The position numbers and the translations under genes are program-made. 64,000 bases of DNA from Alphaproteobacteria bacterium (GTDB lineage: Bacteria > Pseudomonadota > Alphaproteobacteria > Puniceispirillales > UBA1172): positions 41,622-105,621 of the forward strand of contig JAYQOF010000006.1 in NCBI GenBank assembly GCA_038144675.1. The letters run 5' to 3'. Below, in pieces: positions 4,668 to 33,767 of the stretch (the stretch's first letter is position 1; the number at the start of each line of letters is the position of its first letter). Below the pieces are notes generated by a model. It was not told where the DNA came from. It saw nothing but the letters and a program-made list of their open reading frames with translations, and made no database searches.

Positions 4668-4679
4668 GGCTTTACCATT

Positions 4680-4860: not shown

Positions 4861-4949
4861 AGCGAATAATCAGGAGTAAATACACCTGTTATGGACTTGC
4901 TAGCTGGAAATACTTTCTTCTCTTGCTTTAATCCTGTCAGAAACGACCT

Positions 4950-5204: not shown

Positions 5205-5228
5205 TTACAGTTATCTCAAAATATTTAA

Positions 5229-7240: not shown

Positions 7241-7354
7241 TAGTAAAATTTATCAACCTCAGTATATTAGTTACTAATATTCTCCTAGCTATAAACGATT
7301 GTCGTTCACATATTGCTCTAGCTGGGTTTCCAATAGTTCTATAATAGTAAAAAT

Positions 7355-7537
7355 TTAGAGACTTCGATTATAATAAAACCATAGATGTTGTGTATCCCAA
7401 TCAGAATTGGTGTATGCTTTAATCAATGTTCCACGCTCCATAGCTTGAAAACATTCTTCTAAGCTTACTCTTATCCAAGCATAACTAGGCGTAGCGAAAA
7501 TAACAAAGGCTATAGCGGCTAGGATGATGCGATACAT
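7355..7537 (-). CDS. small signal-peptide protein (60 aa)
   Basis: MYRIILAAIAFVIFATPSYA leader, paralogous to the 7046-7240 leader. Confidence 0.4.
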   Translation of the reverse strand: MYRIILAAIAFVIFATPSYAWIRVSLEECFQAMERGTLIKAYTNSDWDTQHLWFYYNRSL

Positions 7538-7538
7538 A

Positions 7539-8353: not shown

Positions 8354-8650
8354 GCCCATTATTTTTCTCCATACATCTGGGGTCAGTCTGCAATGTATTC
8401 CCATCAAAATCAATATGAGCCACGTTACCATTGTGCTTACGACAAAATACCTGCAGGCCCTATTTCAGTAAAGCCCACATCAACTAAAGAATAGCTCTGT
8501 AGTGATGCTGAGTCTGTCTGACCATTAACATCAGCCTCGCATTTTGAGCAGACAATCTGGTGCGCAATAGAGTTGAGAAAGAATAAGTACTGGTAGGTCT
8601 GAGGTCATTATCTTGGCGAACATTTGCCCATAGCTATTGAGCCACGACAA

Positions 8651-8932
8651 TTATTTCTCGATAAATGTCATCGTATTCTCAAATAACTGAACATCAAATT
8701 GGCTGGCAAAGACATAGTATTTACGGATTTCAGACCCAAAAAATGACCTCAATTCTATCGACCTTATACTCATCACAACTGAATTTTCCTGATGAGTCAT
8801 TTTTGACCCCACCTTGATAGCAAAGTATGCGCTGTCACTATGTACTCTTATGACTACAGCATATTTCCATTTATCTATCATTTCTTGGGAATAAGTATTT
8901 TTTCTGTGTCCCATTTTTTTGTACCAGGGCAA
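8651..8932 (-). CDS. hypothetical protein (93 aa)
   Basis: ORF track only. No family recognised. Confidence 0.3.
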   Translation of the reverse strand: MPWYKKMGHRKNTYSQEMIDKWKYAVVIRVHSDSAYFAIKVGSKMTHQENSVVMSIRSIELRSFFGSEIRKYYVFASQFDVQLFENTMTFIEK

Positions 8933-9191
8933 TTATACTCGGTAAAAGCAATATTAGTATTCAAAAAATAACAGTGTTATAAGAAGAAAAATTCCTCATT
9001 TGATTAATCCTTAAAGCAAATACCTGTTCTGATTGTTATCAATTTGCATAATTAGTTGAATACTGAATGTTCATATTTATGCTAGTTCCGCCTCCAAACG
9101 TGTAGTGTTTTCATTGATGCAATATAACCCTTTGCGGCAAACTCAACTATCCCTAATTTATCAATTAATTGAAGTTGGCTTTTAAGATTAT

Positions 9192-9410
9192 TCATCTGAT
9201 AGAATCGCCCCCAACAGTGTTTTCACGGATACTTATTAATAATCTTTCCTCTGTTTTTCCAGGTCCGAAGAAGCGTCCGTCATTTGCAACTTCCATATTA
9301 TCTACATTGCTACAAGTATTTTCTTCTGCAAAGCTAGGCGATGCAAACAGTAAAATAGGGAAAATAACCAATATGATCGCATTGCTATTTCCTATTGAAA
9401 ATAATTTAAT
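9192..9410 (-). pseudogene. third small signal-peptide protein, canonical start codon missing
   Basis: My own translation: IKLFSIGNSNAIILVIFPILLFASPSFAEENTCSNVDNMEVANDGRFFGPGKTEERLLISIRENTVGGDSIR. The position where Met is expected is ATT (9408-9410). The plus-strand ORF 9169-9414 is its antisense shadow. Confidence 0.3.
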
Positions 9411-9994
9411 ATGACGTAACTAGCCTCTTTGCAAACGTCCATGAATCATGCCTTCATTACAGGTGTAATATATTGACCTGTAGCCACATAATGCTCTTGA
9501 GGAAGGCTCAAAGAGTACATCTGATTAAGCTGAACCATTAAATCCAATGTTTGCTTCAGTTTGTTCAGTTAATGACTTTTCCAAACATTTATCGACAGTC
9601 TGCAATTACCTGAAGCAAATAACCAAGATTTGCGAGTCAGTAAAAAACTGATCTGACAGGCTCCTGACTATCATTTCTTGTATTTTGCAATAGATTAGCA
9701 ATCCACAAGTATAATGCAGAGCATCTCAGCGCCACATAACCAGCACTGCTTGGATCATCAATATGTTTGCGAAATTTATTGAGGAGGCTCTAACTCAAAT
9801 CTTCAGACCTTATTTTGATAAACATACTAACCAAATTGTTTAAAATCGCGCTCGATATTACTCTCATGATTGTTTCATGCTAAACATAACTTTATATAGT
9901 ATATATAGGTGGTACTAATTCAAGACCATAAATTCATCAAATTAATCCTGACGGGTACTAAATTTGGAACTTAAAAAGAGCACATATTTTATAA

Positions 9995-10470
9995 TTAACG
10001 CTCATCTAGCTCCATTTCTGCCTCTCTTCGTATGGCTTCAATACCGTAATCTGCATTAGGCCATTTGGGTTTAGGTCGCCAACGCATCCAATCATTGGTT
10101 GGTTGATGCCCTAAATAACCTTTATCAGTGAGGATGTATTCTGAGGCGCGTCTGCCTATAAAGCTACCTATTCTGGATCTCTTAATAAAACCATGCTCAA
10201 TAAGTTTTTTTATAGCTGATTGAGCAGTATTTTTTACTGATATGCAGAATATCTGCCGCCTCAGCCAAGCTTAGTGATATTTTGCCATTATTTTTGCCAT
10301 GGTAGCGTCTGCAGATCTCTAAATATAACTTACATGCGGCAGGAGGCAGATGTCGCCATGCTTCACTTGCTAAAACGCTGTGCCTCATCTTGTAATTGCT
10401 TATCAAGTTCTTCTATATTGCCTCTCTTTCTTTGCCTAGATGAGTACTTAGAGCGCATAGGATCAGGCAT
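9995..10470 (-). pseudogene. phage/island-type HTH DNA-binding protein, two frameshifts
   Basis: A strong Shine-Dalgarno ribosome-binding sequence (aggaggtgagg) precedes ATG at 10470, giving MPDPMRSKYSS. Then MRHSVLASEAWRHLPPAACKLYLEICRRYHGKNNGKISLSLAEAADILHISK (ORF 10197-10406). After a T/A run at 10230-10235 it continues NTAQSAIKKLIEHGFIKRSRIGSF...WPNADYGIEAIRREAEMELDER to TAA 9995-9997. Confidence 0.6.
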
Positions 10471-10493
10471 CCTCACCTCCTTTACTCTTAGAC

Positions 10494-10796
10494 TTAGGTT
10501 TTTTGCCTATAAGGACTCTTGCCCATTCTGAATGGCCATAGAGGGCATCCTGTATGAACACATAGTCTGGCCTCCTTTGGACTGCCTCCACTGCACTCAA
10601 CACAGTTCTTTCTGATAGCTTTTATGGGAGAGGTGTTGGTTAATCCCATTTCAACGAGAGTTTCCCCTATTTCAAGCGGATTTTTTGCCGACAAAGTGTT
10701 GTCCGGTATCCTGACTTCCCTTGAGAGGTTCTTTAAGAAAAAAGGGGCTTTAAGTGGGGTGTTTTTCATAATACACCCCACTTTATTTTCGTTCAT
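10494..10796 (-). CDS. small Cys-rich (zinc-ribbon-like) phage-associated protein
   Basis: IRKNCVECSGGSPKEARLCVHTGCPLWPFRMGK, a pattern recalled from small proteins of alphaproteobacterial prophage islands. Confidence 0.45.
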   Translation of the reverse strand: MNENKVGCIMKNTPLKAPFFLKNLSREVRIPDNTLSAKNPLEIGETLVEMGLTNTSPIKAIRKNCVECSGGSPKEARLCVHTGCPLWPFRMGKSPYRQKT

Positions 10797-11081
10797 GGGC
10801 TAGGGAGTGCTTATGAGGGGTGATCTGCTCATTAACCCACTCATCAAGCCACTCAGTCAGGTTTGTAAAACGCTCTTTTATTGATGAGGGTATATTTTGC
10901 CCCAGACCCTGTCATAGCCTGTCTAGCGAGGTTGTGGGCGAAGAAGGGAGGCCTAGGCTGTTTAAATATTCTGCGGCCTCTTTTCGGCTTAGTAGTCTTT
11001 GCATTTAGAACTCCAAAAAATATTACTGATATAGTTTGGGTATCATTTGCAAGACGTGAGTAGTTAGCAAAAACCTTCCTA

Positions 11082-11543
11082 TTATGAGGGTTTTTTACCA
11101 CATACGTTTTTTCTGTTGCCTGCTTCTTTTTTTAGAAGTTTGTATCTAAGCAGATCTGTCCTGAGGTAATTGCCAGTCTTGGGACAATAATTCCAGAACA
11201 TGCTCATCTGAAGCAAAAAATTTGTTTCTTCATAGATGTCGTATTTCTTGGCATCTACAAATATACAAAGCCAATCTAATATATAATCTTCCTGTGAGAC
11301 ATCTTTGACTGGCCTTCCACCACCACGAGGGGGTCTTAGAGATTTGTTAGATAATAACCAGTAATTTAAACTGGGATCTTGGTCTCTGAGTCTTTCTAGA
11401 AGGAATAGCACATGGTCTGATGGAGTAGATTTTCCTTTTTTGCAATCGGCTAACAAATCAATTAATCCATCCCATTTCCCAGCTAGTAGATCATTTATTG
11501 CTCTTAGTTGAAGGGGATAATAATTATCATCTTTATCTGCCAA
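11082..11543 (-). CDS. hypothetical island protein (153 aa)
   Basis: Intact ORF immediately downstream of the integrase, containing PPRGGGRPVKD. No family recognised. Confidence 0.4.
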   Translation of the reverse strand: MADKDDNYYPLQLRAINDLLAGKWDGLIDLLADCKKGKSTPSDHVLFLLERLRDQDPSLNYWLLSNKSLRPPRGGGRPVKDVSQEDYILDWLCIFVDAKKYDIYEETNFLLQMSMFWNYCPKTGNYLRTDLLRYKLLKKEAGNRKNVCGKKPS

Positions 11544-12679
11544 CTATATCCTCCCATATCTGACCATTGCTGGAATACTTGACGTTTCTGCTCTTTGTAT
11601 TCTGCAAGGTTATAGATGCCCGCTCACACCGCTTCTGGCAAAGGTTTTATGACCTATACAGGCATCAACAATATGCGGCGGCATTCCTGCTTCATTACAA
11701 TGGGTATCAAAAGCGTGCCTTAATTGGTGATATGTCCAATGCGGAATATTAATATTGAGCTTTTTCTTTATTTTATCTCCTAGCCAGATGGGCTTCTCGC
11801 CATTTACAGAAAATAGGTATGAGCCTTTATTCTTGGTTGGGATAAACTGCTTTGCGAAGGGTTAGATAAATATGGTTATCTAAGCTATTCTTTGCCTTAG
11901 CCGCTGGTAACGTCCACCAATCACCATTGATATCATGTTCCTCAAGCGTTGTTGTCTCTCTGTTTCTTTGCACTGTAAGAATGATAAACTTGAGAAGATT
12001 TTCCTGAATAGAGGTTAACCGTTTCGATGCTTCCAAATAATTTTGATTTCGTCGAGAGTAATCAGGCGTTTGATAGGTTGGGGTTTTTTAGGAGGAGATC
12101 TAGCAAGAGGTGGTTTTCAATATAGTCACGATCTAAACACCAGCTTAACAAACCGCTCATAGCACTCCATATTGCCAATGCCGTTCTATCTTTTCCTTTA
12201 GATTTAGCTTCATCAGTAATCGAATAGATATCTGAAGATCGAATATGAATAATCATATGCTTTGATAGGCGAGGTAAAATCAATTCTTAAAGATATTGAT
12301 CGTATCTTTTCGATGTTTTGGGCTTCGCTCATTTAGATAGACATCGACATATTTATCAAAAGCATCAGCAAGAATAGGAATACTTTGCTTCTTATGTAAA
12401 TCTTCAAGGTATGTGTGAGATGAAAATTCACTTGCTATCGCTTTGCTCGTTCTCGAGCTTCATCTACAGAGATAACATCACAGCCAGCAATTTTGATCTG
12501 TTTAGACCTACCTGACTGTTTGATGCGGCCTTTAAAGACAAATGATTTACGTGTCTTAGTTACACAAACGGCAAATCCCTTAAGTTTATCATCCTACACA
12601 AAAATTGGCTTTTGAGGGTCATCACAAAGAAAGCTTGCTAATGAGCTTAGCTGTTAATACTGGCACTAGCACCCCCCAT
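11504..12679 (-). pseudogene. int: P4-type tyrosine integrase, multiply disrupted
   Basis: N-terminal arm-binding domain LTAKLISKL...IFV*DDKLKGFAVCVTKTRKSFVFKGRIKQSGRSKQIKIAG with in-frame TAG at 12594-12596. Core region LTVQRNRETTTLEEHDINGDWWTLPAAKAKNSLDNHIYL. Catalytic region HWTYHQLRHAFDTHCNEAGMPPHIVDACIGHK...YNLAEYKEQKRQVFQQW. At least five frame changes, one at the C/G run 12672-12677. Confidence 0.85.
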
Positions 12680-12694
12680 TTGATTTAAGGGGGT

Positions 12695-12733
12695 AAAGTT
12701 GTGAGCATATTGTGAGCAATAATATGATATTAA
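12695..12733 (+). repeat. 39-bp direct repeat, copy 2 (candidate integrase arm-type sites)
   Basis: aaagttgtgagcatattgtgagcaataatatgatattaa, containing GTGAGCA twice. It lies just upstream of the integrase start and about 115 nt before the tRNA fragment. Confidence 0.5.
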
Positions 12734-12845
12734 CATTGATATACATTACATTAAGATGATAATGAATGTATAGCAAAAAATTAACTAATATACTGTATTT
12801 AAATACTTTAGTTTATTATTTTTGGTTTGGGCAATTGAGTTATTT

Positions 12846-12904
12846 GTTAGAGCAACTGATTCGTAATCAGTAGGTCGGAGGTTCAAGTCCTCTCAGCAGC
12901 ACCA
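12846..12904 (+). repeat. displaced 3' fragment of tRNA-Thr(CGU) (att site remnant)
   Basis: gttagagcaactgattcgtaatcagtaggtcggaggttcaagtcctctcagcagcacca. The anticodon arm and 3' acceptor/CCA match the intact gene. The T-arm differs (ggagg/cctct). The upstream sequence cannot pair with cagcagc, so there is no acceptor stem. Confidence 0.8.
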
Positions 12905-12980
12905 TAATCAAGATTTACTTGATGACCTAACGCGGGATTAAGGCTTGATAAGCATATGATCTGGTATAAAGTTAAAGACC

Positions 12981-13395
12981 ATGAAACCATCGATAACTTA
13001 CCTTCTTTTTCTCGCCCTATTTATGATCGGAAAACTTGCAATGGCCAGTGAAATCCAAATTGATATACTTACTGAAGGCACTGGTGATACTGCTGAAACG
13101 GGCAAAACCGTCTCTGTCCATTATGAAGGCCAGCTGTTGGATGGGTCAGTATTTGATGCATCAAGACCCAGAGGCCAGGCCTTTCGTTTTACCATTGGGG
13201 CGGGGCAGGTCATCCCCGGCTGGGAACAGGGTAACTGGCATGAAAGTCCGGGGAAATCAGCTGACCATCCCGCCAGAACTTGCCTATGGATCATCAGGGG
13301 CAGGTGATGTCATCCCACCAGATGCTACATTGATTTTCACCATTGAACTGCTTGAGGTTTCCAACCCCCGCGATACTGGGTCAGGCGACACCTGA
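12981..13395 (+). pseudogene. FKBP-type peptidyl-prolyl cis-trans isomerase with signal peptide, frameshifted
   Basis: [44 protein letters not shown] (ORF 12981-13307), then [43 protein letters not shown] in another frame. The break is near 13230. Confidence 0.8.
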
Positions 13396-13731
13396 TGAAC
13401 TGCTTTCCGCGCAAAAGGACGGGGTGATTATCATTGATATCCGCCGGGAAGAAGAATGGCAGGAAACCGGACTGATTGAAGGGGCGCAACCGATTACCGC
13501 GTTTCAGTCCAATGGCAGCCTGCATCCGGAGTTTTCCGGGATAAATTTTTTTGCTGCGGTCGAAAATCCGGACACCCCTATTCTCATCTATTGCCGATCA
13601 GGAAACCGGACAACCAGCCTGGGCAACGCATTAATTGATCAATTAGGGATTTTTCCAACGTCACCCATTTATCAGAAGGTATCATAGGCTGGCAGGCAGC
13701 GGGCAAGAACACGGTATCCTATCAACCGTAA
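13343..13731 (+). pseudogene. single-domain rhodanese-like sulfurtransferase, C-terminal frameshift
   Basis: GVIIIDIRREEEWQETGLIEGAQPI...ILIYCRSGNRTTSLGNAL. The true C-terminus EGIIGWQAAGKNTVSYQP is in another frame and ends at TAA 13729-13731. The start is uncertain. Confidence 0.55.
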
Positions 13732-13740
13732 CTGGGCTGA

Positions 13741-13770
13741 TGCGATAAGATTTATCGCAGTTTTTGTTTT
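13741..13770 (+). terminator. rho-independent terminator
   Basis: tgcgataa-gat-ttatcgca hairpin followed by gtttttgtttt. Confidence 0.5.
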
Positions 13771-13834
13771 CAATTCAATCAAAAACCGTTAAGGATAGGG
13801 CATGATTGATATTATGGATGAATAACGCACGCAG

Positions 13835-14632
13835 ATGAATGTCAGCCAATCCTCATTATCGACCCCCATATACTTGAAGTAAAGGATTTGCATAAATCCT
13901 ATGGAGCGCTTGAGGTTTTAAGAGGGGTAAGTTTTACTGCCCCCAAAGGTCAGGTTATTACCTTTATCGGATCATCCGGATCAGGGAAATCAACACTGCT
14001 GAGATGTTGTAACCTGCTTGAATTAAGCCATTCAGGTGAGATTATTTTTAATGGTGAGCCTGTTATATGGAGCGGTCAGGGGGCATCCCGGCAACCAGCT
14101 AACCGGCAACAGATTACGGCTATGAGAACCAATTTGGCCATGGTATTCCAGCAATTCAATTTATGGTCGCATATGACCATTCTGGATAATGTGATTGAAG
14201 CACCGGTGACGGTGCTGGGGCGGTCGCGGGATATTATGCGAAGTATAGGCCTTGATCTGCTGGATAAAGTTGGGATTGCAGATAAAGCTGATGCGTACTG
14301 GCCATCACAATTATCAGGTGGCCAGCAACAACGTGCTGCGATTGCAAGAGCACTTGCTATGGAACCTATGGCTATGCTGTTTGATGAGCCGACTTCCGCG
14401 CTTGACCCGGAATTGGAACAAGAGGTTGTTCGCGTGATTAAAGCGTTAGCAGAAGAAGGCCGTACCATGTTACTGGTAACCCATGATATGCGACTTGCCC
14501 ATGATCTATCAGATCATGTTATATTTCTTCATCAAGGAAAAATCGAAGAAGAAGGGAGCGCCAGAGGATATTCTGGTTCATCCCAAAACAGAACGGTTGC
14601 AGCAATTTTTAAGCGCTGGTGCTGTGAGCTGA
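13835..14632 (+). pseudogene. polar amino-acid/opine ABC transporter ATP-binding protein (HisP/OccP-like), frameshifts at both ends
   Basis: Walker [10 protein letters not shown], signature LSGGQQQR, Walker [12 protein letters not shown]. The N-terminus [11 protein letters not shown] is out of frame with [12 protein letters not shown]. The C-terminus reads correctly as [23 protein letters not shown] only after a shift, ending at TGA 14630-14632. Confidence 0.85.
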
Positions 14633-14665
14633 GATATTAAGCGCTAATATCTTTTGGAGGATGTT

Positions 14666-15386
14666 ATGAAAAAAGTAATTTTAGCAACAGCTTTAGCTAG
14701 CATGCTGGCAATGCCAGCCATGGCAGAAACAATCCGCATGGGAACAGAAGGGGCTTACCCTCCCTATAATTTCATCAATGATAAAAACGAAGTTGATGGA
14801 TTTGAACGCGAGGTAGGTGATGAGCTTTGTGCGCGTGCCAATCTGGATTGCGTATGGGTTGTAAATGACTGGGACTCTATTATCCCAAATCTGGTATCAG
14901 GGAATTATGATACGATTATTGCTGGCATGTCCATCACGGCAGAACGTGATGAGGTGATTGACTTCCACTCAGGAATATTTCCCGCCAAGCCCTTCCATGT
15001 ATGTCGGCCTGTCAGGTGGCAGTGTTGATATAAATGGCGGGGTTATTGCTGCACAGACAGGTACTATTCAGGCAGGTCATGTGGCATCATCTGGCGCAAC
15101 TCTTGTTGAGTTTGCCACCCCTGATGAAACCATTGCGGCGGTTCGTAATGGTGAAGCTGATGCCGTTCTTGCTGATGGTGATTATCTGATGCCAATCGTT
15201 GAATCAGGCGGTGAGTTAGCCGTTGTTGGTCAGGTTGGAATCGGTGGCGGTATCGGCATGGGTATTCGCGAATCTGATTCAGCCCTGAAAGCCAAAATGG
15301 ATAAAGCGATTGCTTCCATGAAATCTGATGGCACCCTGAATACCATGATTAAAAAATGGTTTGGTGATGATGCGCTGACATTCTAG
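14666..15386 (+). pseudogene. periplasmic polar amino-acid-binding protein (LAO/HisJ/Occ-type), frameshifted
   Basis: MKKVILATALASMLAMPAMA signal peptide, then TEGAYPPYNFINDKNEVDGFEREVGDELC...IIAGMSITAERDEVIDF. It continues in a second frame (ORF 14958-15386). Confidence 0.8.
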
Positions 15387-15421
15387 TCAACGCCGTTCAG
15401 GTGAAGCCATAACTATCTGGT

Positions 15422-15441
15422 CGGGGCAAATTTTTGCCCCG
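15422..15441 (+). terminator. intercistronic hairpin after the binding-protein gene
   Basis: cggggcaa-attt-ttgccccg. No clear T-run, so it may be an attenuator or mRNA-stabilising hairpin rather than a full terminator. Confidence 0.35.
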
Positions 15442-15481
15442 GCTTTAAGGTCTAACCACTGATGCAAGATTAGATATAATC

Positions 15482-16354
15482 ATGTTTTCCTGTACCAATC
15501 CCGATCAGATTGAAGGCTTCAACTGGCTTGTCTGTTATCTTGGCACGGCCAAACATATGGCATTCTATCAATCTTTTCTGGTGGTCTTTGTCACTGGTGT
15601 TGATAACGGCGCCTCTGGCCATGTTATTCGGGCTTATGGCGGCATCTGCCAGCCGGTCAGCGATACGGATCATCCAATGGCCCGGAAAAATCTATATTGC
15701 TATGGTCAGGGGTGTTCCTGATATCGTTTTCTTTCTTTTTGTCCCGCTTGCCCTGGATCAGGGTATTGAATATATCCGCCATCGTATCATGTGTTCTGAT
15801 CAAACCGGATCAGTCTGGCAGGGCAATGATTTCGTTGTTTGTGATATGGCAAAAATGCCGCTTTCCAGTGCTAGCCCGTGGGTGCATGATGCTTATGGAT
15901 TTATGCTGGCCGTGACAGCTTATGCCATTGTCTTTGGTGCTTTTGTGGGTAATGTTCTGGCAGGTGCCATGGCGGCAGTGCCGCGCGCTCAACTGGAAAC
16001 CGGATCAGCCTATGGCATGACAAGGCGGCAGGTATACTGGCGTATTCTTTTCCCACAAATGTGGATTTACGCCTTGCCCGGTCTATCCAATTTATGGGTG
16101 CTTCTGATAAAGGCGACGCCATTGCTGTTTCTTGCTGGGGATACAGGATATTGTGTATTGGGCACGAGCTTGGCAGTGCCAAAACATCGGCTTATAGCTA
16201 CCCGCATCCGGATTGGCGGGTCTGGTATTTTCTGGCCTTGCTGATTTTCTATCTGTTTATAACATGGGTCAGTGAGCGCGTGTTTAGCTGGTTGAACCGC
16301 CGGTTTTCACGCGGCCAGTCCATGTTGATGAACAGCCAGCAGCCAGATGGGTAA
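15482..16354 (+). pseudogene. ABC transporter permease (HisQ/OccQ-like), frameshifted
   Basis: ETGSAYGMTRRQVYWRILFPQMWIYALPGLSNLWVLLIKATPLLF (ORF 15510-16244), then ELGSAKTSAYSYPH...FYLFITWVSERVFSWLNRRF (ORF 16061-16354). Confidence 0.75.
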
Positions 16355-22501: not shown

Positions 22502-23327
22502 TCAATGTCGGTTAGCGTGCCATGTGATATGATCAGCCATGAAACTGGCAACAAAATAATAGGAATGATCATAACCGGGATGTTGCCGGAGCGTGAGGGG
22601 AATGCCGGCCTTTTCGGCGGCCTCTGCCAGCAAATGTGGCTTGAGATGTTCATCAAGAAAAGCATCGGCTAACCCCTGATCAACCAGCATATCGCCCTTC
22701 CAGCCATGGCTGGCCATTAATGCGGTGGCGTCATGTAATTGATGGGCGGCGGCATCATCCCCAGATACACTGGTAGAACATTCTGCCCCCAGCCGCTTGC
22801 CATTGCTGATGATATCGGGGCGAATGCCGATACTGACCGGAACAGATGCGGATGTTTCATGGCTAGGGTCAGGGCACCATGACCGCCCATAGAATGGCCG
22901 GTTATGCCCATGCCTCTGGATGATATATCTCTTCCCAGTGCCGTATTGATCAGATCAGGTAATTCTTCGGTGATATACCGATCCATGGCAAAATGTGGTG
23001 CCCAAGGCGATTGGGTAGCTGTTAGATAAAATCCTGCACCCCTGTCCCAGAAAATAATCATTGCTGTTAGCGACATTTTCCCCGCGCGGTGATGTGTCGG
23101 GGAATACCACAGCCATATTATGCTGGGCGGCGGCGGCTTGGGCGCCCGCCTTGGTGGCGGCATTTTCCCATGTGCAGGTTAACCCCGACAGATAGATGAG
23201 GACACTATCAGGCTTGCCATGTTCAGGGGTGAATAAGGCCCAGTCCATGGAACATTGCGTGGCTGTACTATCATGACGAAAGACACGATGCGTGCCCCCA
23301 TCATGCGGGTCTCGGCTATGGTTTGCA
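22502..23327 (-). pseudogene. fghA: S-formylglutathione hydrolase (esterase D), frameshifted
   Basis: Starts MQTIAETRMMGGTHRVFRHDS. Then YLSGLTCTWENA, GITGHSMGGHGAL and GYDHSYYFVASFMADHITWH, spread over three ORFs in different frames. Confidence 0.85.
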
Positions 23328-23367
23328 TGGGTGTCCTGTCTGTTAAGTTTGTTTTCTTTCCCGCCAG

Positions 23368-24474
23368 TTAAAATTCCACAACTGAGCGGATGCTTTTGCC
23401 TTCATGCATCAGATCAAAAGCGGTATTGATTTCTTCCAGTGGCATCTTATGGGTAATCATCGGATCAATCTGAATTTTTCCATCCATATACCAGTCGACA
23501 ATTTTCGGCACATCGGTACGGCCACGTGCGCCGCCAAAAGCGGTGCCACGCCATGACCGGCCGGTCACCAGCTGGAACGGACGGGTGCTAATTTCCTGAC
23601 CAGCACCGGCCACCCCGATAATGATGGATTCGCCCCATCCCTTATGACAGCATTCCAGCGCGGTGCGCATGACACTGGTGTTACCAATACATTCAAAACT
23701 GTAATCCGCGCCGCCGCCGGTTATTTCCACCAGATGCGCGGCCAGATCGCCTGATACGTCATTGGGGTTAACAAAATGGGTCATGCCAAATTTTCCCCCA
23801 TGCTTTTTGTCGTTGTTCATATCCACCCCGACAATCATATTCGCGCCAATCAGCTTTAGCCCCTGCAGAACATTGAGCCCGATGCCGCCAAGCCCGAACA
23901 CAACCGCATTACATCCCGGTTCGGCTTTGCTGTATTGATCACCGCACCGATGCCTGTCGTCACCCCGCAACCGATATAGCAAACTTTATCAAATGGCGCC
24001 GCCGGATTAATCTTTGGCCAGCGCGATTTCAGGCAAAACCGTATGATTGGCAAAGGTCGAGGTTCCCATATAGTGAAAAATAGGCTTACCATTCATGGAA
24101 AACCGCGACGTGCCATCTGGCATAAGCCCCTGACCTTGAGTGGTACGGATAGCCTGACACAGATTCGTTTTCGGATGCAGGCAATAATCACATTCCCGGC
24201 ATTCCGGTGTATAGAGAGGTATCACATGATCACCGGGCTTGAGCGAGGTAACTCCCGCACCAACTTCAAGCACAACACCGGCGCCCTCATGTCCCAAAAT
24301 GGCAGGAAAGATGCCTTCAGGGTCAGCGCCTGATAAGGTAAACTCATCAGTATGACAGATGCCGGTAGCTTTAATTTCAACCAGTACTTCACCTGCTTTC
24401 GGGCCTTCCAGATCTACTTCCATAATCTCAAGTGGCTTGCCCGCTTCAAGGGCAACAGCAGCACGCGTTTTCAT
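23368..24474 (-). pseudogene. adhC: S-(hydroxymethyl)glutathione dehydrogenase / class III alcohol dehydrogenase, frameshifted
   Basis: [54 protein letters not shown]...GHEGAG (ORF 24007-24486). It continues over two more frames ([14 protein letters not shown]; [11 protein letters not shown]...). Confidence 0.9.
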
Positions 24475-24666
24475 GATTTCCTCCAATATTATCTTTCGAT
24501 TTCACTCAATCCTGCAATAGGATAATATGGTGGTGCGCAATTAAGCAAGCCAGATATCTCTAATGCTTTGATTTTTTGTCTGACTTCATGAAAGTCTGAT
24601 AGCATGATTTAACGGTTTACAAGATGATAGCTTGATGGGCTGATAACGATACCAGAGGCATATCTA

Positions 24667-25335
24667 TGTTACATATAAATGATTGGCTGATTCCTGGCTT
24701 TGACCTGTCTGGCTGGTGCAGCAAGTCCCGGGCCTAGTGTTGTCGTATTGATCCGCAGTGTCACCAGCACAGGTGTGATGGCGGGCGTGATATTCGGCAT
24801 TGTCCCACGGATTGGGGATTCTGATTTATGCCGGGCTGGTTTCACTGGGGTTAGTTTCGCTTCTGCTGTTATCCCCATTTTCTATTTATCCTGATTCAGG
24901 TGGTGGGCATCTGTTTTCTGGTCTGGATTGGCGGGCATATGATCAGGGCCGGCATAAAGGATATTCGGGGTGGTGGCATTAATGATCATGCCCATAAAGC
25001 TGATATAAATCTTTTCTGACACATTAACCCCTTTGCCATATTGGTTCCATGCCCGTGACGGGTTTCTGATCGCTTTCCTGAACCCGAAAGTGGCGGTGTT
25101 CTTCACCGCTGTCTTTAGCCAGTTTCTGACAGTCGGCCAGACGGCCCAGATACGGATACAGATGGCAGCAACGGCATGGATCGTTGATACATTGTGGTAT
25201 ATGTTGCTGGCATCTATATTTGGCTTGCCAATGATTTTACGATGGTTCCGGCGACATGCCAGTCAGATCAATCTGATCATGGGGGGCATATTGATTTTTC
25301 TTTCGGGGGTAATCGCTTTATCGCTCATGACCTGA
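24667..25335 (+). pseudogene. LysE/RhtB-family amino-acid exporter, several frameshifts
   Basis: LAGAASPGPSVVVL motif (ORF 24700-24894) and C-terminal FLNPKVAVFFTAVFSQF (ORF 25033-25335). The ATG at 24667 is in a third frame. Confidence 0.65.
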
Positions 25336-25428: not shown

Positions 25429-26418
25429 ATGACATTCAGGGCATTATTGCTAACAAGTGAAGATGACGCTAAGCCAGTTGCTCAAGTGACAGAATTAACA
25501 GATGCGGATTTGCCAGATGGTGATGTTGTTGTCGATGTATCTTATTCGGGCCTGAATTTTAAAGATGGCATGTGTCTGACTGGGTTGGGTCGACTGGTGC
25601 GAAGTTATCCCCATATTGGCGGCATTGATATGGCTGGCGTGGTGCATTCATCGAAAGATGAACGGTTCAAAGCCGGTGAAGCCGTTATCCTGACTGGCTG
25701 GCGTGTTGGTGAAGCATGGTGGGGCGGCTATGCGGAAAGGGCATGTGTGAAAGGTGACTGGCTGTTGCCGATGCCGGACGGGTTTACCGCAAAAACGGCA
25801 ATGGGTGTTGGTACGGCTGGATTTTCTGCCATGCTGGCGATTATGGCACTCGAAGATGCTGGCGTTACGCCTGATAAGGGTCCTATTCTGGTGACTGGTG
25901 CAACAGGTGGTGTTGGCTCGATATCCGTGCAATTACTGGCACGGCGTGGCTATGATGTGGCGGCGGTTAGCGGCAAACCAGATGCAGAACAATTCCTGAA
26001 ACCTCTTGGGGCGCAGGAGATTCTTCCGCGTGAAGAGTTTGCGGCATCAAACAGACCATTGGAAAGCGCCCGCTGGGCTGGCGTGATTGATAATGTGGGC
26101 GGTGACATGCTGTCACGCATTCTTAGTCAGGTGAATTACGGCGGTGCTGTTGCCATTGTTGGTAATGCCGGCAGTAATAATATCAACACAACAAATATTC
26201 CGTTTATGTTACGCGGGATAAAAATGCTTGGCATTGATAGTGTCATGCAACCGAATGACCGGCGTAAAGCCGTATGGGCCGAACTGGCCAAGACACTGGA
26301 TGCGGATCAATTTGCTTCGGTTATTCATCCGATTTCACTGGCAGAATTGCCTGAATATGCAGATAAAATTCTCAGCGGCAATATCAGTGGCCGGATAGTT
26401 GTTGATCTCTCTCTATAA
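25429..26418 (+). CDS. acuI: acrylyl-CoA reductase, YhdH/AcuI-type MDR oxidoreductase (329 aa, intact)
   Basis: VVVDVSYSGLNFKDGMCLTG...WGGYAERACVKGDWLLPMP...ILVTGATGGVGS pattern typical of the YhdH/AcuI family. Adjacent to dmdA. Confidence 0.8.
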   Translation: MTFRALLLTSEDDAKPVAQVTELTDADLPDGDVVVDVSYSGLNFKDGMCLTGLGRLVRSYPHIGGIDMAGVVHSSKDERFKAGEAVILTGWRVGEAWWGGYAERACVKGDWLLPMPDGFTAKTAMGVGTAGFSAMLAIMALEDAGVTPDKGPILVTGATGGVGSISVQLLARRGYDVAAVSGKPDAEQFLKPLGAQEILPREEFAASNRPLESARWAGVIDNVGGDMLSRILSQVNYGGAVAIVGNAGSNNINTTNIPFMLRGIKMLGIDSVMQPNDRRKAVWAELAKTLDADQFASVIHPISLAELPEYADKILSGNISGRIVVDLSL

Positions 26419-26459
26419 ATCTGTCCTGCTAAACATGTTTTTATTATGGAAGTTTTAAG

Positions 26460-27604
26460 ATGTCTTTTTCTATTGCAATTGGCCCCAGAATTCGTAAATC
26501 ACCATTTTTCGATAAAACCGTAGAAGCTGGCGTCAGCCATTTTTCCACCTATAATCATATGTATATGCCCGTTTCATATGGTGATCCTCTGGCTGAATAT
26601 GATCGGGTTATCAATCATGTTGATATTCGTGATGTGTCTGTTCAGCGTCAGGTTCGGCTCAAAGGCCCTGATGCGGTGCGACTGGCACAGTTATTGACGC
26701 CGCGTAATCTGGATAATCTGGAAATTGGTAAGGGCCTTTACATGCCTATCTGTAACAGCAAAGGCACATTGGTGAATGATCCGGTGTTGTTGCGCCTTTC
26801 CGAAGACGAATTATGGCTGTCCATTGCTGATAATGATACGCTGATGATGGCCGAAGGGTTCATCTGTGCGCTTGGACTGGATGTTGATGCGTCCGAACCC
26901 GATGTTTCACCCTTGGCAATACAGGGCCTAAATCCCATTATGTTGCCCGTGATTTGCTTGATGATACCCCATTGCGATTAAGTTATTTCGGGTTTTATGA
27001 AACAGAATTACAGGGCATTCCGCTGGTAGTGGCCAGATCAGGGTGGAGCAAACAGGGCGGCTATGAATTCTATTTGCGCGATGGCTCCAAAGGTGGCCAG
27101 CTCTGGGATCTTGTCATGGAAGCAGGAAAGCCATACCAGATAGGGCCAGGGGCGCCGAATTATATTGAACGCGTGGAAAGTGGAATTATTTCCGTTAATG
27201 CGGATACAGATGAACATTCCAATCCTTATGAAATGGGGCTTGGCGTGATTTGTGATCTTGATCAGGATGTTAATTTTATTGGCAAAGCGGCATTGAAAAA
27301 AATCAAAGCCGAAGGGGCAAAGCGGGCATTCTGCGGCATTATCATGGACGGGGCACCATTTTCTGCGACTAATGAAAATCCCTGGCCTATTTCACTAAAT
27401 GGCAGCTTTGTCGGTTATGCCACGGCAGCGGCATATTCGCCGCGTATGGATAAAAATATTGCGGTTTGCCTGATGACTAATGAAGCTATTGCGGCGGCGG
27501 CGGATATGGTTGTTGAAACCAGTTATGGCATTCGCAATGCGACGGTCACCAGCTTGCCATTTATGCCACCATCCACAAAAGTACCAAAAGAGCTATTATC
27601 ATGA
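26460..27604 (+). pseudogene. dmdA: DMSP demethylase-like aminomethyltransferase (GcvT family), single frameshift
   Basis: SIAIGPRIRKSPFFDKTVEAGVSHFSTYNHMYMPVSY...DVSVQRQVRLKGPDA...EPDVSPLAIQG, then PKSHYVARDLLDDTPLRLSYFGFYETELQGIPLVVARSGWSKQGGYEFYL in another frame. The break is at about 26924-26930. The resemblance to characterised DmdA is from memory. Confidence 0.7.
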
Positions 27605-28907
27605 GTAAATCATTTGGCTTTGACACATTAGCATTGCATGCTGGTTATACCCCTGATGACAGACATGGGTCACGCGCTGTTCCTATTCATCAGACAACGT
27701 CATATATGTTTCATGATACCGAACATGCGGCATCACTCTATAATCTTGAGGTGGGGGGCATCTCTATACCCGGATTTCCAATCCAACTATTGCGGCACTG
27801 GAAAACCGCTTGGCTGCCCTTGATGAAGGCGTTGCGGCTGTTGCTGTTGCAACAGGTATGTCTGCGGTTTTTCTGTCAATTATCGCATTAGCATCACAAG
27901 GTGATCATATCGTCGCCTCTTCGCAAATGTATGGCGGTAATATTAATTTGCTTGAACATACGATGTCACGTTTTGGCGTTACCACCAGCTTTGTTGATCC
28001 AACAGACCTTGATGCGATTGCTGCCGCCATCAGACCAAATACCAAGATGGTTTTTGGTGAAGTTATCGGCAATCCGGGACTGGATGTGATGGATGTTGCC
28101 GCCGTCGCTGAGGTTGCTCATGCTGGTGGGGTTCCTCTGGTTATTGATGCGACGTTGAACACACCATATCTGATCAAACCGATAAAACATGGTGCCAATA
28201 TCGTTATCCATTCGCTGACCAAATGGATTGGTGGGCATGGGGTTGCCATGGGAGGAATTATTATTGACGGGGGTAATTTTGACTGGGGACAAAATGATCG
28301 CTTCCCGACATTGACGAAACCACATTTTGCCTTTCAGGAGGTCAATTTATGGGAAGAGTTTGGCCCGGCTGCTTTTTCCATGCGGGTACGAAGTGAAGGC
28401 ATGTATAATATTGGCCCGACATTAAGTCCGACAAATGCGTTTCATATACTGCAAGGACTGGAAACACTGGGTATGCGGATGGAACGGCATATATCTAACA
28501 CGACGGAACTGATTGCATTTCTTCAGAACCATGATGGCGTGGCATGGGTAAATCACCCCAGCCTTGCTGATCACCCGTGCCATGATGTTGCTATGCGGCA
28601 AATGCCAAAAGGGGCCGGATCAATCGTGACCATGGGAATTAAGGGTGGCCGCATGGCAAGTCAGGCCTTTATCGAAAAGGTTGAACTGGCTTCGCATCTG
28701 GCCAATGTTGGTGATGCAAAAACGCTGGTGATTCATCCGGGTAGCACAACCCATTCACATATATCTGCTGATGCCATGAAAGCCGCAGGGTTAACAGATG
28801 ATCTGATCCGGATTTCTGTCGGGTTAGAAGATATAGATGATATCAAGGCAGATTTTGATCGTGCCATCAATTTTGCGGTGAAAAAAACATCATCTAAAGG
28901 TGCTTGA
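27601..28907 (+). pseudogene. metY: O-acetylhomoserine sulfhydrylase (aminocarboxypropyltransferase), single frameshift
   Basis: [14 protein letters not shown]...[12 protein letters not shown]...LYNLEVGG, then [24 protein letters not shown] after the G-run at 27753-27758. SLTKWIGGHG holds the PLP lysine. The start ATG overlaps the dmdA stop (ATGA 27601-27604). Confidence 0.85.
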
Positions 28908-28911
28908 GCTT

Positions 28912-29711
28912 ATGCAGATAATGATAAATGATGCTGATATTTTTGTTTCTACAGGTGGCCGCGAACCAGATAAAGATGCCCCTGTTCTGTTGTTTATTCA
29001 TGGCAGTGGACAGACGCATCTGACCTGGCTTCTGCAAGCGAGTATTTGCAAATCGGGGCTGGTCTGTCATGGCTCCGGATTTGCCGGGGCATGGGCTCAG
29101 CAAAGGTCGCCGCTTACCAGTATCGAAGATCTGGCCGATTGGTGTCATGATCTTATTTGTCAGGCAGGCCATGGAAAGTAACTGTTGTTGGTCATTCCCA
29201 AGGAGGACTGGTAGCATTGGAACTGGCCAGACGATATCCGGATGTTATTGCCGGTATCGGTCTGATTGCACTGGCATTAACAATTCCGGTTAACCCACAA
29301 CTCATTAATATGGCCGAACATAATGAACCTGCTGCCTTTAATGCCATGGTGAGAGAACGGGCCATGGACGTGATGGTGCGTTTCATGATCACACCATGCC
29401 GGGAAATAGCCATATCAATCTGGGCAAACGCATCATGGCTAGTAATGATGAAGGCGTATTGGCCATTGATCTTAAGGCATGTGACGCTTATCAGGGCGGT
29501 GAAACGGCGGCGGCCAGCATCACAGCCTGCTCTTATTATTCTGGCAAAAGAAGACAAGATGACACCAAGCAAGCGAGGATATGAACTGGCTAAGGCTATT
29601 CCGCATGCCGAATTGGTTGTGATAGAAAATGCTGGCCATATGTTGCCGGTTGAACGCAGTGATGATGTTAATAAATCATTACGCCGGTTATTTGAAAAAA
29701 CAGGAGCATAA
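28912..29711 (+). pseudogene. alpha/beta-fold hydrolase, frameshifted
   Basis: VLLFIHGSGQTHLTW, APDLPGHGLSKG, nucleophile elbow VVGHSQGG and ENAGHMLPVE, spread over three frames. Confidence 0.65.
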
Positions 29712-29717
29712 TTTTTC

Positions 29718-32065
29718 ATGACAAGTCATTTCCCTGATATCCCGTTTTCGTCCATTGCCGTCATTGGTGCGGGTACGATGGGTAGTGCAATCGCCGGACA
29801 AATTGCTAATGCTGGCCTTGATGTATTATTGCTTGATATGCCGGATGATGATGCCGAACATGTTAACCGGCCGCAGCATGGAAGCCGTGGAACGGCTAAA
29901 GAAATCTGATCCGCCTGCTTTGTTTTCCAAATCATGTGCTGACCGTATCAAGACAGGTAATATCCGTGATGATATGGCAAAGCTTGCCGATGCAGACTGG
30001 ATTATTGAAGCGGTGGTCGAACGGCTGGATATCAAGAAAGCCCTTTATCAACAGCTGGCTGAGGTTATTCCGGATCATGCTGTTGTCACATCAAATACAT
30101 CCACCATTCCAATTCGTGTGCTGATTGAGGATATGGATAAGGATTTTCGCCGCCGGTTTGCCATCACCCATTATTTTAATCCGGTGCGCTATATGCGCCT
30201 GCTGGAACTGGTCGAAGGTGAGGATACAGACGCTGATATCATGGCAAAACTAAAAGATTATGAATGACCGTGTTTTGGGAAAAGGCGTTGTGCAATGCCG
30301 CGATACGCCGGGCTTTTTAGGAAACCGTGTTGGGGTTTATGCGCTTCAGGTTGGTCTGGCTGAAGCATATGATCAGGGCTTATCGCTGGAACATGCCGAT
30401 GCCGTGATGGGTCGCCCAATGGGTATCCCTAAAACAGGAGTATTCGGTCTTTATGATCTGATTGGTGTTGATCTGATGTCTGACGTGGTAGCAACATTAG
30501 CAACCATTCTTCCTGCTGATGATAGTTTTCATGCAGTGGGAAGGATCATAATCCGGTGGCTAGCACCATTGCATCAATGCTGGCAGATGGCCATAAGGGT
30601 GATAAATCAGGTGGGGGGTTTTATCGCGAAGATCGCACCATGATGATTGATCTGGCTAGTGGTGATCTGGTCAAGACAGGGGAAAATCCATCAAAACTCA
30701 TTGATACAGCAAATGCCATGATGGCGGCAGGCGATGATGCGCTTGTCCTGATGATTAGCCCGCCCGACAATACAGCAGACGCCTCACTGGTGCGTTTTGC
30801 CCGTCGTGTTCTGGGTAAAGTTTTTGCTTATGCGGCTTCTCTGATACCGGCGGGAACACAGCCCCCCCAAGATATTGATGATGCGATGAAACTGGGCTTT
30901 AACTGGCAACGTGGGCCGTTTGAGATGATGGACGCCATAGGTCATGATACGGTCAGAACCATGATCCGTGAAATCTGATATGGATATCCCGCCTATTCTG
31001 GCGGACAGAGCATGTGAATGCCTTTTATCAGCCCAAAGATGGCCAGTTGATGGTAGCGGCATTTACCAGAGAAGATCAGACAGCGGATATGCGGCCAGTT
31101 AATTTGCCGCCGCGCACCATTCGTTTTCATATGATGCGCCGTTGCCTGACTCCGGTACAACAAAACAAGGCCGCCAGTCTATTTGCGCTGGACGGTGATA
31201 TCAGGCTGATTGAGTTTCATTCCAAAGCCAATGCCCTGACTGATGAATCTATGGAAATTGTTGCCGCCGCCGCCACAGATCATGGCCGTGGTATTATTAT
31301 CCATAATGATGCCCAGCATTTTTCGGCGGGGTGGATTTAACCTCTGTTCTGGCATTAATCAGGCAACAGGACTGGGCAGGAATTGATGCTTTTCTGATCC
31401 GGTTTCAGGATGCGGTTGCAGCCATGCGTGATGCGCCGGTTCCGGTTATTGCGGCCCCTTCAGGGCTGGCCATTGGTGGCGGGTTTGAAGTGATTGTCCA
31501 TGCTGATGAAGTCATAGCTCATGGTAATTCAGTGTTTGGATTAGTTGAAGCCGCTGTCGGGGTTGTTCCCGGTGGGGCGGCGTCAAGGAAACCGATGCGG
31601 CGCTGGCTTGATGCAACAAACGATCCTGAAACAGCGGCATGGAAGACCTGGATGCAGATTGGCTATGCCCGCACTGGCACCAGTCCAGAGGAAAGCGCAA
31701 AGCTTCAATATTTTCTACCCGAAAGGGATAGGATGGAAATGAACCGTGATAAGCTTCTGGCTAGTGCGATGGAACGTATCGAAACTATTCATAGCGCCGG
31801 ATATATGCCACCCAAAGCTCCGCAATTAACCTTGCCTAGCGTGGATTTGCGTAAAAAAATGTCTGATTTCATGGATAAGGGCATTGCAGATGGGTTGTTT
31901 TTACCACATGATAAAACGGTTGCAATGGCGGTTGCTAGCATTGTCGTCAGTGATACCGATGGTGAAGAAACTGTATCTGAACGGGATATGTTTGCGCGTG
32001 AAAGGCGGGCCTTTCTGGCTTTAGCAAAAACAGAACCTACGCTGGAACGTATTTCGATGCATTAA
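29718..32065 (+). pseudogene. bifunctional 3-hydroxyacyl-CoA dehydrogenase (N-terminal) / enoyl-CoA hydratase (C-terminal), at least five frameshifts
   Basis: [55 protein letters not shown], then a crotonase-like part PVPVIAAPSGLAIGGGFEV. Six ORF-track pieces. Confidence 0.8.
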
Positions 32066-32122
32066 TGGAAAAGGGGCAATCTATAAGAAATTGATTGCCA
32101 GAGATGATTTGGAGAATAGTTA

Positions 32123-33767
32123 ATGACAAACCCGTATGATGCCTTTCCGGCGGTTTCAGCAAATTATGTTCCTCTATCACCTTTATCATTCTTGCCACGG
32201 GCGGCATCAATTTATCCTGATGGTGATGCCGTTATTCACGGCAAACGCAGATATTCATGGCGTGAAACCTTTAACAGATGTCGACAGCTGGCAACGGGAT
32301 TGAATGCTATCGGGGTTAGTAAAGGCGACACGGTATCCATTCTTGCCCCCAATATTCCTGAAATGGTTGAGGCGCATTTTGGTGTTCCGGCAAGTGGCGG
32401 GGTTTTGAATGCAATCAACACCCGGCTTGATCCGGAAACAATTGCCTATATCCTCGGTCATGGGGAATGCCGGGTTTTGCTAGTTGATCAGGAGTTTGCG
32501 GAAACAGCCAAACACGCGCTGGCCGCCATGGATCCGGCAGATGTGGCAAAGATCACGGTGATTGATATCATTGACAACGCGTATCAGGGAGATATCAACC
32601 CTATCGGATCAATGGATTATGATGCGCTTCTGGCAAAGGGGAATGTAAATGATCCATGGCAATTGCCAGAAAGCGAATGGGATGCGCTGACCTTGAATTA
32701 TACGTCAGGGACAACTAATCGACCGAAAGGTGTCGTTTATCATCATCGCGGGGCATATCTGTTATGTATGGGAACGATCAGCGACTGGTTTGCGGCGAAA
32801 AGACCATGTTATTCTGGCGCTTGTTCCATTATTCCATTGTAATGGCTGGGGGCATAGCTGGACAATGGCAGCACTTGGGGGGACAATTATTTGTACTCGT
32901 GCTGTTTCGGCGAAAGTGATCTTTGATTCTATTGCGGATCATGGCGTTACCCATTTTGGTGGCGCACCGATTGTTCTATCCATGATCATTAACGCCGAGG
33001 AGAATATCAAACGGCCTATCCCCGAAGGAATACAGGTTGTAACAGCCGGCGCCCCACCACCACCATCTGTTATCACCCAGATGGAAGCGCTTGGGTTTGT
33101 TGTCACACATGTCTATGGCCTGACCGAAACTTATGGCCATGTGACCATGAATATCTGGCATGATGAATGGGATCAGGATGATAGCAAAAACCGTGATCTT
33201 CTCTTGGCGCGGCAAGGTGTAGCCATGACATTTTTGGAAGAACAGGATGTTGTGGATTCGGAAACCATGACACCTGTTCCTGCCGATGGATCAACCATTG
33301 GTGAGATTGTGTTTCGTGGCAATACGGTGATGAAAGGATATTTCAAAAATCCTGACGCTACTGATGAGGCCTTTTCCGGCGGCTATTTCCATACGGGTGA
33401 TCTGGCGGTCAAACACCCTGATGGTTATGTCCAGATTATGGATAGGTTGAAAGATATCATCATTTCTGGCGGCGAAAATATCTCATCTGTTGAAGTTGAA
33501 GCAACCTTGCACAAACATCCTGCTGTTGCGCTGGCAGCGGTTGTAGCCATGGCTGATGAAAAATGGGGTGAAGTGCCTTGTGCTTTTGTTGAATGTAAAG
33601 GTGATATTGCCCCTAGCGAAGATGAACTTATTGCCTTTTGCCGTGAACATATGGCGTCCTTTAAGCGACCAAAGAAAGTTGTCTTCACAACCATCCCGAA
33701 AACCTCAACAGGTAAAATGCAGAAATTCGAATTACGCCGGATGCTTAAGGACGGCCAGTTCAGCTGA
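32123..33767 (+). pseudogene. AMP-dependent acyl-CoA synthetase (candidate MMPA-CoA ligase DmdB-like), one frameshift
   Basis: ANYVPLSPLSFLPRAASIYPDGDAVIHG...LNYTSGTTNRPKGVVYHHRGAYL, then VPLFHCNGWGHSW...YFHTGDLAV...GGENISSVEVE...PKTSTGKMQK. The break is near 32785. Confidence 0.8.

Follow-up and report, generated by a model that had tools for sequence, protein, structure and literature searches.

Marine bacteria obtain reduced sulfur mainly by demethylating the algal compound dimethylsulfoniopropionate (DMSP), a process that steers this sulfur away from climate-active dimethylsulfide (DMS). The steps after the first enzyme, DmdA, are poorly resolved beyond a few model roseobacters, and dmdD is rare. 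Among the systems described so far, the closest are the dmdA-acuI operon of Ruegeria pomeroyi and other roseobacters (Todd et al. 2012, PMC3338564) with the DmdR regulon (PMC12992908), the DmdABCD/AcuH demethylation pathway (Reisch et al. 2011, as reviewed in PMC5395565) and the dmdA-acuH-dmdB-dmdC cluster of SAR92 (PMC10746254). In SAR116, dmdA, homologues of dmdB and dmdC, and acuH have been treated as gene inventories, with only weak dmdB/dmdC homologues and sparse dmdD reported (PMC8547437, PMC12262181). Here we analyzed a cluster of six genes, headed by acuI and a dmdA-like gene, in a 64,000-nucleotide stretch of contig JAYQOF010000006.1 from a Puniceispirillales (SAR116) bacterium; this whole stretch is hereafter called the window. 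With moderate confidence, we read the cluster as a functional, conserved, operon-like unit of a free-living bacterium, which would lead from DMSP or methylmercaptopropionate (MMPA) via methanethiol to methionine, and the small insertions and deletions (indels) that frameshift its genes as probable assembly errors. This reading draws on which genes are present, how well they are conserved, their linkage to DmdA genes and the signs of artefact in the indels.

The cluster consists of the following genes (window coordinates; CoA, coenzyme A; ORF, open reading frame; aa, amino acids).

25429-26418, plus strand: acuI/yhdH-type acrylyl-CoA reductase, 329 aa, intact in the window (ORF listing and profile scans)
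26460-27604, plus strand: DmdA-like methyltransferase of the GcvT family, in two pieces, 381 aa once repaired
27601-28907, plus strand: metY, O-acetylhomoserine sulfhydrylase, in two pieces, identified by profile matches of the fragments
28912-29711, plus strand: alpha/beta-fold hydrolase, 267 aa in relatives, with a GHSQG nucleophile motif and Pfam matches to Abhydrolase_1/6 and Hydrolase_4
29718 to about 32094, plus strand: 3HCDH_N/3HCDH/ECH_1 fusion, 790 aa in relatives, with an N-terminal 3-hydroxyacyl-CoA dehydrogenase and a C-terminal enoyl-CoA hydratase (hereafter HAD/ECH)
32123-33767, plus strand: AMP-forming acyl-CoA synthetase (ligase) of the PRK08162 subfamily, 547 aa, in two pieces

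ORF listing and family scans bore out the six genes at 25429-33767 in the order that an earlier note on this DNA had given them, with acuI intact and the other five frameshifted. The note had also called the cluster compact, and its genes do form a coherent unit on one strand that is conserved throughout SAR116. The ATG of metY overlaps the stop codon of the DmdA-like gene (ATGA), and in SAR116 loci the cluster genes either overlap or are separated by 4–45 bp. Rfam searches near the cluster found no riboswitch or other RNA, tRNAs alone being detected, and promoter-like and terminator-like sites were not more frequent than in shuffled sequence.

Similar to the R. pomeroyi operon, the locus has a DmdA-family gene and an acuI/yhdH reductase adjacent on one strand. 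However, the order is reversed here, with acuI first; no GntR-type dmdR was seen beside the cluster in the window; the DmdA-like protein belongs to a sister clade; and there are four extra genes (metY, hydrolase, HAD/ECH and ligase), which go unmentioned in PMC3338564 and PMC12992908. The locus resembles the DmdABCD/AcuH pathway and the SAR92 cluster in that the surroundings of its DmdA-family methyltransferase gene include genes for an AMP-forming CoA ligase and a crotonase. It differs from both in lacking DmdC, in having a PRK08162 ligase instead of DmdB, in carrying its crotonase fused behind a 3-hydroxyacyl-CoA dehydrogenase rather than as a free DmdD/AcuH of ~260 aa, and in having MetY and the hydrolase as integral parts. 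In full-text literature searches, no paper was found to describe a linkage of dmdA with metY, with this hydrolase, with the HAD/ECH fusion or with a PRK08162 ligase. The module is new relative to the literature searched, and the dmdA-acuI adjacency is already known. The earlier note had called the combination of acuI-dmdA with metY and a reversed-order HAD/ECH fusion less familiar; this stands for the dmdA-metY linkage but not for the domain order, which is a known architecture of the Staphylococcus aureus FadB type.

The repaired GcvT-family protein has intact 381-aa relatives, 97–99% identical, in marine metagenome assemblies labelled Candidatus Puniceispirillales (SAR116), and more distant SAR116 relatives form a graded series. 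Every SAR116 locus recovered shows the order adhC-fghA (minus strand), lysE, acuI, dmdA-like, metY, hydrolase, HAD/ECH, ligase, DUF1289 (minus strand), and this order is kept down to 61% identity of the DmdA-like protein. Because unrelated flanking genes are equally syntenic within SAR116, the order there could by itself reflect inheritance, and the decisive evidence comes from loci outside SAR116.

We surveyed 84 loci with a HAD/ECH orthologue, 80 from a metagenome scan and four fetched separately. MetY, hydrolase and HAD/ECH genes occur together in 48 of the 84, and the ligase is also present in 17 of 33 informative loci. A DmdA-family gene lies within 310 bp of the module in 13 of 40 informative module loci; in three more loci, DmdA is encoded directly upstream of HAD/ECH, without metY or hydrolase. 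In Amylibacter ulvae (Rhodobacterales), the metY-hydrolase-HAD/ECH-ligase genes have overlapping stop and start codons, and a GcvT-family gene scoring 476 bits on the curated DmdA model NF009133 (cutoff 410) lies divergently beside them. Counting A. ulvae and six metagenome loci, DmdAs that pass NF009133 (476–524 bits) stand divergently beside metY-hydrolase-HAD/ECH-ligase, an arrangement found as well in a 2.75 Mb contig (L127, ENA contig_21310). In three other loci (L066, L072 and L100), model-passing DmdAs (427–479 bits) are encoded directly upstream of HAD/ECH or of metY-hydrolase-HAD/ECH. A Rhizobiaceae metagenome-assembled genome groups dmdA-like, metY, hydrolase and HAD/ECH genes, and distant homologues (L112–L114) carry the same four module genes in rearranged order. 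The adjacent DmdAs represent three subtypes, and four that were tested pass the curated model (427–524 bits); the adjacency recurs in at least four arrangements and across orders. The linkage to dmdA, which the earlier note had proposed to examine in relatives, is thus conserved, and the module recurs beside DmdA-family genes in unrelated lineages. The linkage is real and recurrent, but not obligatory.

Some features of these loci are of separate interest. In L127, four genes on the other strand (11039-16325) lie just downstream of the module. They encode a stand-alone enoyl-CoA hydratase, an acyl-CoA dehydrogenase that could be a DmdC, a fusion of 3HCDH with a thioesterase, and an ADP-forming acyl-CoA synthetase (CoA_binding_2 / Succ_CoA_lig / ATP-grasp_5) from the same superfamily as the DMSP lyase DddX. 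All of this may make up a larger DMSP island. The HAD/ECH proteins of Amylibacter are 64–67% identical to those of SAR116 (P0223 versus P0155), as close as SAR116 subclades are to one another, a hint that the module has moved horizontally between pelagic lineages. Some sequence clusters are very abundant, with 830 and 1224 members.

The DmdA-like protein, once repaired, is 99% identical in amino acid sequence to the product of the intact gene in the same-species contig L005. It contains both PF01571 and PF08669, and its best PDB match is Pelagibacter DmdA (3tfh, E = 6.6e-82), compared with 2.4e-35 for GcvT (1woo). Its identity is 38% with the DmdA of Pelagibacter, 39% with that of Amylibacter and 27% with GcvT of T. 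maritima, and the scores on the GcvT (157 bits) and trimethylamine N-oxide demethylase (163 bits) models are far under its DmdA-model score. With Pelagibacter ubique DmdA it shares a full-length alignment, the same two Pfam domains and the SGWSKQGGYE motif, including the Trp. We checked the DMSP-contact residues via those quoted in PMC7487153 and found W, E and Y of this motif conserved, a feature that is necessary but not sufficient for a DmdA. The Trp has been called key for DMSP interaction and is also present in some 'non-DmdA' clades (PMC7487153), so that it does not discriminate DmdA.

Family models and structure matches were then compared for the other enzymes. AcuI passed TIGR02823 (423 bits, cutoff 297) and scored 393 bits on the AcuI equivalog NF051456 (cutoff 440). 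The intact MetY orthologue of L005 passed TIGR01326 (574 bits, cutoff 495) and fell just under NF006004 (629.7 bits, cutoff 636). For the hydrolase, no NCBIfam model was passed, the best being PcaD-like (111 bits); its best PDB match is the esterase 5frd, reported with bound CoA. DmdD/AcuH is a stand-alone crotonase of ~260 aa with two catalytic glutamates; the crotonase domain here is the C-terminal third of the 790-aa fusion, and its motifs GGGFE and GLVEAAVG, with both catalytic Glu residues, are invariant in 12 HAD/ECH orthologues. S. aureus-type FadB (NF052272) is similar in having a dehydrogenase N-terminus, a crotonase C-terminus and a length of ~750–800 aa, and Cupriavidus necator FadB' shares this domain order. 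However, the fusion scored far below the cutoff of the FadB model (421 versus 999 bits), and it adjoins metY, the hydrolase and often dmdA, with no thiolase or acyl-CoA dehydrogenase beside it. The intact ligase orthologue passed PRK08162/NF006020 (816 bits, cutoff 677), and the DmdB structure 6ihk was only its fourth PDB match. His231 and Trp235 of DmdB (residues from PMC6850173) are conserved in the ligase, yet also in unrelated ligases.

The frameshifts were examined by alignment to intact contigs of the same species, which set the indel positions. L001, L005, L042 and L043, counted as three independent assemblies (L001, L005 and L042/L043), are 96–97% identical to the window in DNA, have the same gene order and carry every cluster gene intact. 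The single indel noted earlier in each of three genes was confirmed, as a 1-bp deletion in a CCC run of the DmdA-like gene (~26927-26929), a 1-bp deletion in metY (~27753-27756) and a 1-bp insertion in the ligase gene (~32813). Five indels were located in the hydrolase gene (29041, 29107, 29178, 29355 and 29525), nine in HAD/ECH and four in lysE (24692, 24802, 24881 and 25015). Compared with L005 or L042, acuI has none, an outcome with a chance of 0.13 at the window's indel rate. Window and L042 differ by 46 indels of 1–2 bp in 22.4 kb, and the density is about 1 per 490 bp across 19724-42089, the region covered by the indel analysis; the remainder of the window was judged by eye.

These indels are absent from the three other same-species assemblies, and they are spread uniformly over the 22 kb, whether coding or not (Kolmogorov–Smirnov p = 0.46). 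A three-way alignment shows 37 indel columns private to the window versus one private to L005, yet private substitutions are fewer in the window (173 versus 212), that is, about 1 indel per 4–5 private substitutions versus 1 per 212. Read in frame with the intact genes, the substitutions private to the window comprise 113 synonymous and 51 non-synonymous changes and no stops; 69% are synonymous and 74% fall at codon position 3. A neutral expectation was rejected for this ratio (binomial p = 2e-27), which is not distinguishable from the 152:48 of L005 (Fisher p = 0.16). Runs of at least four identical bases lie near 14 of the 25 deletions and only 3 of the 21 insertions, which are mostly random bases; five insertions added a base unlike either neighbour. 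Neither GANTC nor GATC methylation motifs show an enrichment of indels, and enrichment at CCWGG is marginal (2 sites, p = 0.04).

Since the indels are unique to this assembly and evenly spread, and the substitutions show purifying selection, artefacts are the most likely explanation. Real decay with so many indels would bring many non-synonymous and nonsense changes, which again favors an artefact, and the combination expected of pseudogenes (relaxed selection, nonsense changes and reproducibility in independent data) was not found in the window. We are therefore highly confident, on these comparisons, that the frameshifts are assembly or sequencing errors, and the 'recent loss' suggested in the earlier note falls away. 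Broken genes across 19724-42089 also include amino-acid ABC transporter genes, a choline-dehydrogenase-like GMC oxidoreductase, adhC, fghA, lysE and rlmN; the 64 kb hold just 47 ORFs of at least 150 aa, and the breakage is apparently window-wide. As the apparent decay is most likely a property of the assembly, pseudogene calls from it are suspect and should not be trusted. The otherwise intact L001 also shows an irregularity (3569-4712): its adhC call spans just 252 aa, compared with 369 aa in other contigs, and a gap of 385 bp comes after it; this is either a local assembly defect or a real lesion.

Taken together, the gene content suggests a pathway, each catalytic step of which we infer. 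First, the DmdA-like methyltransferase would transfer a methyl group from DMSP to tetrahydrofolate, leaving MMPA, as homology and context suggest. The PRK08162-type ligase may then activate MMPA, acrylate or both to the CoA thioester, and a DmdC-type dehydrogenase encoded elsewhere, outside the window, would make methylthioacrylyl-CoA. The crotonase half of HAD/ECH would hydrate this product and free methanethiol, taking the DmdD/AcuH role. MetY would join methanethiol (or sulfide) to O-acetylhomoserine, forming methionine (or homocysteine), a reaction that MetY enzymes are known to catalyse. Speculatively, AcuI, the dehydrogenase half and the hydrolase might dispose of the reactive C3-CoA remainder. 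An attractive candidate route for it would run from 3-oxopropionyl-CoA via 3-hydroxypropionyl-CoA and acrylyl-CoA to propionyl-CoA, with AcuI helping. The use of methanethiol by MetY is accepted in the field (PMC9769926).

A more specific proposal, which we put forward only tentatively, is that metY, the hydrolase, HAD/ECH and the PRK08162 ligase form an undescribed branch of DMSP demethylation that replaces DmdB and the rare DmdD in abundant pelagic bacteria (SAR116, Amylibacter-type roseobacters and others). In such a branch, the fusion would free methanethiol from methylthioacrylyl-CoA and may process the C3 remainder with AcuI, and MetY would trap the methanethiol directly as methionine.

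Several observations weigh against a DMSP demethylation cluster with artefactual frameshifts. The repaired DmdA-like protein scored 367.4 bits on NF009133, below the cutoff, and its intact L005 orthologue 365.5 bits; P. ubique DmdA reached 636 bits. In a bootstrapped neighbor-joining tree, the canonical DmdA clade, represented by P. ubique and six others above the NF009133 cutoff with the R. pomeroyi and Howard clade A–E references left out, was monophyletic in 98 of 100 replicates, and the window protein, which is only 38% identical to the P. ubique enzyme, fell outside it. It stands in a neighboring radiation with gammaproteobacterial, Kiloniellaceae and Acidimicrobiales sequences; canonical clade and radiation jointly exclude GcvT and dimethylglycine dehydrogenase (DMGDH) in 80 of 100 replicates. 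No characterised member was found in the clade of the DmdA-like protein. Accordingly, of the earlier assignment of this protein to DmdA, a greater nearness to DmdA than to true GcvT stands, whereas membership of the characterised-DmdA clade does not. The function of a DMSP demethylase is still plausible from this evidence, because the same slot is held by canonical DmdAs elsewhere and distant SAR92 DmdAs have been ratified. The latter, tested by complementing an R. pomeroyi dmdA mutant, share only 35–40% identity with the enzymes of R. pomeroyi and P. ubique and are peripheral to clades A–E (PMC10746254). SAR116 dmdA has been treated as clade B (PMC6771949).

Further points of this kind concern the other genes and genomes. 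In Candidatus Puniceispirillum marinum IMCC1322, the relative P0052 (60% identity, 383 bits on NF009133) lies outside any such cluster, beside DMGDH-like and threonine-aldolase genes. Its locus (L039, CP001751.1 2372937-2394046) places it between a threonine-aldolase-like gene and an 806-aa DMGDH-like gene, and its methylated substrate may be a different one. The SAR116 sequences linked to the cluster group by themselves (81%), apart from the IMCC1322 type; IMCC1322 is absent from the 120 best HAD/ECH matches, and the literature disagrees on whether IMCC1322-type SAR116 carry dmdA. The cluster and the window contain no DmdC, as the earlier note had stated; the PROSITE acyl-CoA dehydrogenase signature was found in no frame of the window. 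The DmdB role that the note had offered for the ligase did not hold at the family level, with 301 bits on the DmdB model NF005426 against a cutoff of 822, compared with the clear pass on PRK08162. In R. pomeroyi, metY is down-regulated rather than induced on DMSP (PMC9769926). The module occurs without adjacent dmdA in Amylibacter marinus, in L045 (acuI-metY-...) and in many metagenome loci, so its substrate need not derive from DMSP. Finally, two genes have more indels than expected, the hydrolase gene with 5 versus 1.6 (p = 0.026) and HAD/ECH with 9 versus 4.9 (p = 0.06), both uncorrected, and the non-synonymous to synonymous ratio of private substitutions in HAD/ECH is somewhat raised (16:21). 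Some real decay of these two genes may therefore be present among the artefacts.

Among other explanations, the cluster might serve to detoxify and assimilate acrylate or 3-hydroxypropionate, that is, the downstream part of DMSP cleavage and not demethylation. The ligase would make acrylyl-CoA, which AcuI would reduce or which ECH/HAD and the hydrolase would convert via 3-hydroxypropionyl-CoA to malonate semialdehyde, with no acyl-CoA dehydrogenase or thiolase required. The absence of both enzymes fits a C3 unsaturated substrate; AcuI comes first in the SAR116 cluster and likewise in the dmdA-less L045, and IMCC1322 has acuI linked to dddP, a DMSP lyase gene (PMC3338564). However, this scheme leaves unexplained why metY, translationally coupled, is the most constant partner of hydrolase-HAD/ECH; acuI adjoins the module in only 6 of the 84 loci, all SAR116-like, and the recurrent neighbor is DmdA rather than a DMSP lyase. 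We regard it as unlikely.

Equally improbable in our view is that the module has no link to DMSP, metY standing beside ordinary short-chain fatty-acid beta-oxidation genes and the GcvT-family demethylase acting on another methylated compound, with the SAR116 synteny, shared by the unrelated flanks, reflecting ancestry only. All of the 'DMSP-specific' models were missed (DmdA 367/410, AcuI 393/440 and DmdB 301/822 bits), the majority of module loci lack dmdA, and one of them (L128) lies beside MTTB, DMGDH-like and xsc-pta genes. Neither chance nor inheritance, however, adequately accounts for an adjacency that involves three subtypes of DmdA, model-passing members among them, and that recurs across orders in four or more arrangements.

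Least probable of all is genuine recent pseudogenisation, in which the strain lost DMSP demethylation and its cluster is decaying by frameshifts: the indels are truly in the sequence and all derived in this lineage, with about twice the expected density and a slightly raised substitution ratio in hydrolase and HAD/ECH, but near-total gene breakage is implausible at 97% identity to intact free-living relatives, and the equal indel density in all neighbor genes and intergenic DNA, the indel-to-substitution ratio, the mostly synonymous private substitutions without nonsense changes and the five foreign-base insertions speak against it.

Upstream of the cluster lie the following neighbors.

24660-25335, plus strand: LysE/RhtB-family exporter, directly upstream of acuI, PF01810 in the L001 and L002 gene calls, syntenic in SAR116
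22665-24486, minus strand: adhC and fghA (glutathione-dependent formaldehyde dehydrogenase and S-formylglutathione hydrolase), divergent from the cluster, frameshifted in the window

Whether the exporter is part of the functional unit is uncertain. In all SAR116 loci, adhC-fghA divergently adjoins lysE-acuI-dmdA-like; a link to oxidation products of one-carbon units or of methanethiol is conjecture, and plain synteny is the alternative. Elsewhere in the window, an intact tRNA-Thr at 4680-4755 and, at 12831-12901, a degenerate copy of the 3' portion of this gene (59 bp, 90% identity, Rfam 36 bits, uncalled by ARAGORN) bracket ~8 kb of DNA with low G+C content (38% versus 47%). This stretch holds Sel1-repeat ORFs and a tyrosine-integrase remnant (11613-11861, minus strand), and 4680-12901 looks like a genomic island integrated at tRNA-Thr.

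For SAR116 biology, the suggestion of a recent loss should be dropped, and the cluster itself stands. Given how little is settled about the steps after DmdA, a dmdA-linked module that is coupled translationally to metY would supply candidates both for the hydratase step that is missing and for the direct capture of methanethiol.

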